Assembly (NCBI RefSeq): GCF_044647545.1
Contig: NZ_CP172818.1
Length of the DNA stretch: 64,000 nt
From: Escherichia coli
GTDB taxonomy: Bacteria > Pseudomonadota > Gammaproteobacteria > Enterobacterales > Enterobacteriaceae
Reading direction: 5' to 3' (one strand)
The notes beneath the pieces were generated by a model, which made no database searches, was not told the DNA's origin, and saw only the letters and a program-made list of their open reading frames with translations. Position 1 is the stretch's first letter, and the number at the start of each line of letters is the position of its first letter. Positions 49,703 to 52,064 of this stretch are shown piece by piece. A program made the translations under genes and the position numbers.

Positions 49703-49727
49703 GCCTGATGCGACGTATCAGGCCTAC
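49703..49727. repeat. REP-like palindrome between convergent dgcE and alkA
   Basis: gcctgatgcgacgtatcaggcctac; stem cctgat/atcagg; overlaps the alkA stop codon. Confidence 0.5.
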
Positions 49728-50578
49728 AATTCGGCTTCGTCTGGTTGCCAGCCTTCCGTATACCAGATATGCAACAGCGCATAAGAACGCCAGGGCTTCC
49801 AGCGTTCGGCATAACGGCGGATTTGTGCCGGTGTCATTCCCGGAAATCGCTGTTTAATCAGATAATCATCCGGCAGGAAAACATCTTTCGCCTGCCAGCC
49901 GCGCAAGGCGAAATAATTCGCCGTCCAGCGCCCGATACCCGGAAAAGTTTGAAGCGTTTTCATCGCTTGCTCTACGTCGCCCGGAATTGTCATTGATAAG
50001 GTGCCCTCCAGCGCCGCATTTGCCAGATGAATCAGTGCCTCTGCCCGTTTCAACGGCATACCTAACGCTTTTAATGCCTGCGGGTCGGCTGCAGCCAGCC
50101 GCTGAGGCGTGGGGAAGCAGACATAATCCGGAAAATCATCCAGCCGTTCGCCATAAAGCTGTGCCACTCTGGCGGTCAATTTTGCCGCCATCGCCACGCT
50201 CACCAGTTGGCCTAAAATCGCCCGCACGCCCTGCTCAAAAACATCAACACAACCAGGTAAACGCAATCCGGGCCGCGCTGCGCCTAACTCGCCCAACGCC
50301 CCATTAACAATCTGCGGGTTACATTGCAGATCAAACAGGCGGCTCATTTTCGCCAGACACTCAGCGGCAACAGGTTCTAAACCTGCACTTAAATTTATGT
50401 GCAGAGTATGGCTGGCTATATCCGGAATAGCAGTCACCACGCCGCGATATTCGCCCACCGCCAGACTACGGGCATAATAATCGTCAGCGACCGTTTCCAC
50501 ACCGTTCACCGCACGGGCGGCGAGAAATCCCAACATCCACGACCAGTCATATGGCGGCTGCCAGTTCAGGGTATACAT
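49724..50578 (-). CDS. alkA: DNA-3-methyladenine glycosylase II
   Basis: 284-aa ORF MYTLNWQPPYDWSWMLGFLAARAV...; recognised as AlkA. Confidence 0.9.
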   Translation of the reverse strand: MYTLNWQPPYDWSWMLGFLAARAVNGVETVADDYYARSLAVGEYRGVVTAIPDIASHTLHINLSAGLEPVAAECLAKMSRLFDLQCNPQIVNGALGELGAARPGLRLPGCVDVFEQGVRAILGQLVSVAMAAKLTARVAQLYGERLDDFPDYVCFPTPQRLAAADPQALKALGMPLKRAEALIHLANAALEGTLSMTIPGDVEQAMKTLQTFPGIGRWTANYFALRGWQAKDVFLPDDYLIKQRFPGMTPAQIRRYAERWKPWRSYALLHIWYTEGWQPDEAEL

Positions 50579-50630
50579 CGCATCTCCTTTTTAATCCGCT
50601 TTCAGCATAAACGTTATTCAGACGCTACGC

Positions 50631-50638
50631 TTTGCTTT
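50631..50638 (-). promoter_or_regulatory. Candidate Ada box in the alkA promoter
   Basis: Minus strand reads AAAGCAAA about 55 bp upstream of the alkA start; matches the Ada-binding motif known for alkA. Confidence 0.4.
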
Positions 50639-50711
50639 CATATTCCGGTTGTCGCGACGGCAACATTTCGCTAAAGTCTCGCCCCTTCTTCACCGGCATG
50701 GGGATTATTTC

Positions 50712-52064
50712 GTGTTTATTGGTTTTGATTACGGTACAGCAAACTGTTCAGTGGCGGTCATGCGCGACGGTAAGCCGCAATTACTGAAAATGGAAAACGA
50801 CAGCACGCTGCTGCCTTCAATGCTTTGCGCGCCAACGCGTGAAGCGGTAAGCGAATGGCTGTACCGCTATCATGATGTTCCGGCAGACGACGATGAAACG
50901 CAGGCGCTGCTGCGTCGGGCGATTCGTTATAACCGCGAAGAAGATATCGATGTTACGGCGAAAAGCGTGCAGTTCGGTCTTTCCTCACTGGCACAGTACA
51001 TTGATGATCCAGAAGAAGTGTGGTTTGTGAAATCACCAAAATCGTTCCTCGGTGCCAGCGGCTTAAAACCGCAGCAGGTAGCGCTGTTTGAGGATCTGGT
51101 CTGCGCAATGATGTTGCACATTCGCCAGCAGGCACAGGCGCAATTGCCAGAAGCGATTACCCAGGCGGTGATTGGTCGCCCGATCAACTTCCAGGGGCTG
51201 GGCGGCGATGAAGCAAACGCCCAGGCACAAGGGATTCTGGAGCGCGCAGCGAAGCGTGCCGGGTTTAAGGACGTGGTATTCCAGTACGAGCCGGTGGCGG
51301 CTGGGCTGGATTACGAAGCCACCTTGCAGGAAGAAAAACGGGTGCTGGTGGTGGATATTGGTGGTGGTACGACTGACTGTTCTTTACTGCTAATGGGGCC
51401 ACAGTGGCGTTCGCGCCTCGATCGTGAAGCCAGCCTGCTGGGTCACAGTGGTTGCCGTATTGGCGGTAACGATCTGGATATCGCACTGGCGTTTAAAAAC
51501 CTGATGCCGTTACTGGGCATGGGTGGCGAAACCGAAAAAGGCATCGCCCTGCCGATTCTGCCGTGGTGGAATGCGGTTGCCATCAACGACGTCCCTGCGC
51601 AAAGTGATTTCTACAGTAGTGCCAATGGTCGTCTGCTTAACGATCTGGTACGCGATGCCCGCGAACCGGAAAAAGTGGCCCTGTTACAGAAAGTCTGGCG
51701 TCAGCGTTTAAGCTATCGCCTGGTGCGCAGCGCGGAAGAGAGCAAAATCGCCCTTTCCAGCGCAGCGGAAACCCGCGCATCGCTGCCGTTTATCAGCGAT
51801 GAACTGGCAACGCTGATTAGCCAACAGGGGCTGGAAAACGCCCTCAGTCAGCCGCTGGCGCGAATTCTGGAACAGGTGCAACTGGCGCTGGATAACGCCC
51901 AGGAAAAACCGGATGTCATCTATCTGACTGGTGGTAGCGCCCGATCGCCGCTGATTAAAAAAGCGCTGGCAGAACAGTTGCCGGGCATTCCGATTGCAGG
52001 CGGCGATGACTTTGGCTCCGTCACCGCCGGGCTGGCACGCTGGGCGGAAGTGGTATTTCGTTAA
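50712..52064 (+). CDS. yegD: Hsp70-family (actin-like ATPase) protein YegD, 450 aa, GTG start
   Basis: ORF 50649-52064; start placed at GTG 50712 (FIGFDYGTANCSVAV) to match known length; Hsp70 ATPase motifs (DIGGGTTD). Confidence 0.85.
   Translation: MFIGFDYGTANCSVAVMRDGKPQLLKMENDSTLLPSMLCAPTREAVSEWLYRYHDVPADDDETQALLRRAIRYNREEDIDVTAKSVQFGLSSLAQYIDDPEEVWFVKSPKSFLGASGLKPQQVALFEDLVCAMMLHIRQQAQAQLPEAITQAVIGRPINFQGLGGDEANAQAQGILERAAKRAGFKDVVFQYEPVAAGLDYEATLQEEKRVLVVDIGGGTTDCSLLLMGPQWRSRLDREASLLGHSGCRIGGNDLDIALAFKNLMPLLGMGGETEKGIALPILPWWNAVAINDVPAQSDFYSSANGRLLNDLVRDAREPEKVALLQKVWRQRLSYRLVRSAEESKIALSSAAETRASLPFISDELATLISQQGLENALSQPLARILEQVQLALDNAQEKPDVIYLTGGSARSPLIKKALAEQLPGIPIAGGDDFGSVTAGLARWAEVVFR

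Follow-up and report, generated by a model that had tools for sequence, protein, structure and literature searches.

An element matching the Ada box of the Escherichia coli alkA promoter lies at a conserved distance from the -10 hexamer across Enterobacteriaceae

Ada boxes of the described promoters

Ada binds DNA as an asymmetric monomer. Its target comprises two short elements, an A box (AAT) and a B box (GCAA), which He et al. 2005 defined on structural grounds (PMC3788762). Both boxes are found in the ada, alkA and aidB promoters, at differing distances from the start sites (PMC4437013). Ada is also described as contacting the ada promoter via AAAGCGCA and the alkA promoter via AAAGCAA (PMC3788762). 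For the Ada element, PMC3788762 and PMC4437013 cite Teo 1986, Akimaru 1990, Landini & Volkert 1995 and He 2005. For E. coli K-12, the alkA Ada box is given as AATATGAAAGCAA, 53 nt upstream of the start (PMC6505713, Table 7). The same study reports that alkA of K-12 is induced +2.72 log2 by MNNG. It also finds perfect A/B boxes to be similarly frequent upstream of unregulated genes. Hence, the motif alone proves nothing. Activation of alkA is unlike that of ada and aidB; polymerase binding is very weak and both methylated and unmethylated Ada stimulate (PMC4437013).

We analysed a 64-kb stretch of E. coli DNA, referred to here as the window, that contains alkA and its promoter. What we say of Ada binding, the methylation switch and induction comes from the literature. 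The motif, its identity with K-12, its conservation and its spacing were computed here. The closest relative of the site is the K-12 alkA Ada box itself (AATATGAAAGCAA / AAAGCAAA). The two regions share the 13-mer, the 53 nt to the start, the -10 hexamer, the Shine-Dalgarno sequence and the divergent yegD gene. They differ at four intergenic substitutions, one of which is a C in K-12 in place of the window T at position 50627.

The ada promoter of MG1655 provides a second comparison. Its element, AATTAAAGCGCAA, shares the A box AAT, the 6-nt spacer and the B box GCAA with that of alkA, and faces the regulated gene in the same way. However, the B box of ada is 36 nt from the -10 hexamer (TAAAGG) and upstream of a recognisable -35 hexamer (TTGCGT), whereas that of alkA is 22 nt from the -10 and over the -35 position. 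This closer architecture at alkA is consistent with the distinct mode of activation described in PMC4437013. The base 5' of the B box also differs, being C in ada and A in alkA. According to PMC3788762, citing Landini & Volkert 1995, the C in ada confers an approximately 10-fold higher Ada affinity than that of alkA. More distantly, the alkA box of Pseudomonas putida (ATT-N6-GCAA) has the same B box GCAA and 6-nt spacer, and alkA is Ada-dependent there; P. putida alkA is not inducible in E. coli (PMC3788762).

The site upstream of alkA

The alkA coding sequence (49724 to 50578, minus strand) is an open reading frame for DNA-3-methyladenine glycosylase II of 284 amino acids. On the plus strand, yegD (50712 to 52064; GTG start at 50712) encodes an HSP70-family protein of 450 amino acids. 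Both assignments combine the reading frame with RefSeq annotation, which for alkA is that of matching strains. The genes are divergent and 133 bp apart in RefSeq, with dgcE and yegI on the flanks. A 501-base query spanning the site found matches in 5,411 of 5,426 complete E. coli genomes, and the features beneath the matches were always annotated yegD and alkA. Identity over the query was 100% to strain FDAARGOS_497 and 96.6% to K-12. That the downstream gene is alkA, as an initial sequence-only reading of the window had assumed, follows from the annotation of FDAARGOS_497 and from the 96.8% identity between the AlkA proteins of the window and K-12. In K-12, ada lies approximately 163 kb from alkA, a distance outside that of the 64-kb window.

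AlkA is 284 amino acids long in the window and 282 in K-12, the alkA 3' end lying at window positions 49721 to 49730. In FDAARGOS_497, which is otherwise identical across the promoter, the alkA coding sequence spans 858 nt, made up of 285 codons and a stop codon. Hence, the C-terminus of AlkA is variable among strains. The ExcludonFinder paper gives dgcE-alkA and yegD-yegI only as convergent pairs, and this has no bearing on the divergent promoter.

The sequence-only reading had flagged an Ada-box-like 8-mer, AAAGCAAA, about 55 bp upstream of alkA on the minus strand. This string is indeed present at 50638 to 50631 of that strand, inside the divergent yegD–alkA intergenic region. It spans -60 to -53 from the A of the alkA ATG and is 52 nt from that codon (50578), which fits the approximate distance. 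The 8-mer (50631 to 50638) is an older form of the alkA Ada box, corresponding to the AAAGCAA cited as the alkA element in PMC3788762. The full Ada box, AATATGAAAGCAA, occupies 50632 to 50644 of the minus strand, as judged from the AAT-N6-GCAA pattern, identity with K-12 and Table 7 of PMC6505713. Briefly, it consists of the A box AAT (50644 to 50642), the 6-nt spacer ATGAAA and the B box GCAA (50635 to 50632). The minus strand around the site reads ...CGACAACCGGAATATGAAAGCAAAGCGTAGCGTCTGAATAACGTTTATGCTGAAAGCGGATTAAAAAGGAGATGCGATG... and the 13-mer is on the alkA coding strand, oriented towards alkA, with 53 nt to the ATG. Both the string and its offset are those of PMC6505713 Table 7. Pairwise alignment of the 133-bp intergenic region with that of K-12 gave 4 substitutions, none of them in the 13-mer or in GGAATATGAAAGCAAAGCG. 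Box, -10 hexamer and Shine-Dalgarno sequence are identical in the two strains.

Motif statistics are, in themselves, uninformative because both counts are at chance level. On both strands of the 64-kb window AAAGCAAA occurs 5 times; shuffling the window gave an expectation of 4.46, with 5 or more copies in 43 of 100 shuffles. The remaining four copies are within long open reading frames. The pattern AAT-N6-GCAA is likewise no commoner than chance would give, with 13 occurrences against 19.4 expected. The significance of the site thus stems from its position, its identity to K-12 and its conservation, not from motif counts.

The arrangement of the alkA core promoter is consistent with control by an activator. 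The -10 hexamer TATGCT (50604 to 50609, minus strand) lies 22 nt from the B box, and a Shine-Dalgarno sequence, AAGGAG, is found at 50584 to 50589 of the same strand. Allowing a 17-nt spacer to the -10, the -35 position would be AAGCGT (50627 to 50632, minus strand), which the B box overlaps. This hexamer matches TTGACA at 1 of 6 positions. From the -10 position only, we predict an alkA transcription start site (TSS) at 50597, plus or minus 2 nt, on the minus strand. By this estimate, the Ada box would span about -47 to -35. The lack of a usable -35 hexamer, together with a B box over the -35 position, fits Ada-dependent activation. Work by Landini and Busby from 1999 is said to have found that, owing to this architecture, Ada contacts a different sigma-70 determinant at alkA.

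Consistent with a weak core promoter, a sigma-70 consensus scan of positions 50450 to 50850, at a threshold of 9 of 12, returned no promoter. We read this as the outcome of a weak, activator-dependent alkA promoter and a yegD promoter that scores 8 of 12, not as promoter absence. No alkA TSS is present in the Cappable-seq supplement, and the SMRT-Cappable-seq supplement has no entry for b2068; both datasets were made without alkylation. At the least, this does not conflict with an alkA promoter that has almost no activity in the absence of Ada. The most probable mechanism would begin with recognition of AATATGAAAGCAA by the N-terminal domain of Ada, as described in the literature. Ada bound at the B box would then replace the -35 contact and recruit RNA polymerase. 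Such recruitment would induce the 3-methyladenine glycosylase AlkA after alkylation damage.

Conservation and variation of the box

We compared alkA promoters across Enterobacteriaceae. So that the loci were chosen independently of the promoter, they were found using a degenerate DNA pattern for the AlkA N-terminal peptide WQPPYDW, with one genome per species. Loci were retained only if tblastn confirmed them as alkA. This gave 35 loci, including two E. coli reference loci, from genera including Escherichia, Citrobacter, Salmonella, Enterobacter, Kosakonia, Lelliottia, Pluralibacter and Pseudenterobacter. The DNA pattern also matched about 80 cyanobacterial contigs (within L007 to L122; Nostoc, Leptolyngbya and others) in which tblastn matched no AlkA. 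Evidently, an unrelated, conserved cyanobacterial protein contains the heptapeptide as well.

The pattern AAT-N6-GCAA was present at -64 to -68 from the start codon in 29 of the 35 alkA loci. In Citrobacter amalonaticus it was found at -128, with a 63-nt insertion downstream. Using MAFFT, we then aligned the window with K-12 and 31 other loci, 33 sequences in total, and took the average identity to the window as the measure of conservation. The A box was 97% conserved, the B box 98% and the 13-mer as a whole 94%. Values for TATGCT (50609 to 50604) and the Shine-Dalgarno sequence were 94% and 85%, respectively. By comparison, the segment from the box to the -10, which includes the -35 position of alkA, was 56% conserved, that from the -10 to the Shine-Dalgarno sequence 46%, and positions 50662 to 50655 45%. 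The gap between B box and -10 was 22 nt in 29 of 30 box-bearing loci and 21 nt in the remaining one. These data indicate that the 13-mer is under purifying selection relative to neighbouring non-coding DNA (94% against 45–56% in the flanks). Hence, cross-species conservation independently supports a function for the box. We regard the cross-genus comparison as a clean demonstration that the A/B 13-mer, and not the older 8-mer, is the unit conserved, with a constant 22 nt between it and the -10.

The alignment also refines the definition of the site. Position 50631, the eighth base of AAAGCAAA, is conserved in 33% of sequences and is G in most genera. Because the A and B boxes are conserved and this base is variable, the conserved unit is the 13-mer AAT-N6-GCAA, not AAAGCAAA. 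The proposed match to the alkA Ada element is thus upheld by identity with K-12, by the published alkA element and by conservation across species, while its boundaries required correction from the 8-mer to the 13-mer. Comparison with the published Ada footprints on alkA, which had been suggested as a check, was made through secondary citations, and these assign the Ada element of alkA to this sequence.

Some alkA loci depart from this pattern. No A/B box was found upstream of alkA in Superficieibacter electus, the Enterobacteriaceae metagenome-assembled genome UBA5654 or Shimwellia, while Enterobacter sp. ENT03 and Bisph1 keep GCAA with a degenerate A box (GAT); together these are loci L006, L105, L034, L071 and L004. 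Absence or degeneration of the box suggests that Ada control has been lost or rewired in some lineages.

Within E. coli, variation near the box includes position 50627, which falls in the alkA -35 position. This is T in the window, in ST131 and in E. albertii, Citrobacter and Salmonella, and C in K-12, O157 and some other strains. The T looks ancestral from this distribution. With C, K-12 gains an overlapping, ada-type AAAGCGCA; this string is not conserved and is absent from the window. A more drastic change is found in E. coli 23CRST001 (NZ_AP045758.1; L123, 3257 to 4640). Here, an IS4-family element, ISVsa5 (IS10-like), separates the Ada box from the alkA -10, and is flanked by a 9-bp target duplication, AGCGTAGCG. 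This was the only clearly disrupted locus among the matches listed. The insertion is predicted to abolish Ada-dependent induction, so uncoupling alkA from Ada.

The divergent yegD promoter and the role of the box

The box is also close to the promoter of yegD. On the plus strand this comprises a -35 hexamer TTGTCG (50649 to 50654), a 17-nt spacer and a -10 hexamer TAAAGT (50672 to 50677), and it starts 4 nt from the A box. TTGTCG and TAAAGT are kept in 27 of 29 box-bearing loci with adjacent yegD, and the 4-nt offset from the A box in 25. The hexamers are conserved and the spacer, to which positions 50655 to 50662 belong, is variable. Supplementary Data 2 of the SMRT-Cappable-seq study lists a forward TSS for b2069 (yegD) at MG1655 position 2147647. 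This corresponds to 50685 of the window (plus strand), allowing for a published coordinate that may be 0- or 1-based. The yegD start (MG1655 2147674) follows 27 nt after the TSS, and TAAAGT precedes the TSS by 8 nt. Relative to it, the Ada box is at about -53 to -41, in inverted orientation. The yegD 5' leader, CTCGCCCCTTCTTCACCGGCATGGGGATTATTTC (50678 to 50711), has very high cross-genus conservation for a non-coding stretch. Within it, an inverted repeat, CCCC...GGGG, overlaps the likely ribosome-binding site.

Given this proximity, the single Ada box could be shared. Bound Ada would then activate alkA and also modulate yegD, either by activation or by occluding upstream contacts. The centre of the box falls near -47 when counted from the mapped yegD TSS and near -41 from the predicted alkA TSS, and the back-to-back arrangement is conserved across genera. 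Even so, we consider such sharing unlikely. With respect to yegD, the box points the opposite way from the one in the ada promoter, and the Ada monomer is asymmetric in its binding. Furthermore, yegD is not named in the MNNG tiling-array paper (PMC6505713) or in MMS transcriptome data, sources whose coverage of genes is incomplete. There is accordingly a slim chance that Ada binding couples the Hsp70-family protein YegD to the alkylation response, be it via activation or via occluded polymerase contacts.

Alternatively, this A+T-rich block might mainly serve yegD, its likeness to an Ada box being secondary. It would then provide an UP-element-like contact for the alpha-CTD (-53 to -41) or the site of some other regulator. 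The box is 4 nt upstream of a conserved yegD -35 hexamer whose promoter has a mapped TSS, the usual location of an UP element. We find this very improbable because box and yegD can be separated. Two loci, L082 and L014, do not have yegD adjacent, and L014 has lost the yegD -35 as well; in both the box is still with alkA, at the unchanged 22-nt spacing to TATGCT. Hence, the box belongs to alkA. In addition, conservation falls precisely on the A and B boxes (97–98%), and published work attributes the site to Ada and alkA. Finally, we reject the explanation that AAAGCAAA arose by chance and regulates nothing. In its favour one might invoke the motif counts (5 against 4.46 and 13 against 19.4 expected) and the A/B boxes upstream of non-responsive genes (PMC6505713). 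Against it, the published K-12 site is identical and at the same offset, the 13-mer forms an island of 94% cross-genus conservation between flanks of 45–56%, and 29 of 30 loci keep the same 22-nt distance to the -10.

We conclude that the site is very probably the Ada box already described for the alkA promoter, carried without change by this E. coli strain, with binding by Ada taken from secondary citations. Mechanistically, confirming the alkA Ada box in this window brings nothing new. An annotation-free first pass had nonetheless picked out a genuine regulatory element. Only the close, conserved adjacency of the box and the yegD promoter leaves a point of some interest. The Ada regulon has long been held to comprise only four genes; if Ada were to act on yegD, that gene would be an unrecognised addition. 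The site itself belongs to the classic adaptive response to alkylation damage, where self-methylation turns a DNA-repair protein into a transcription factor.
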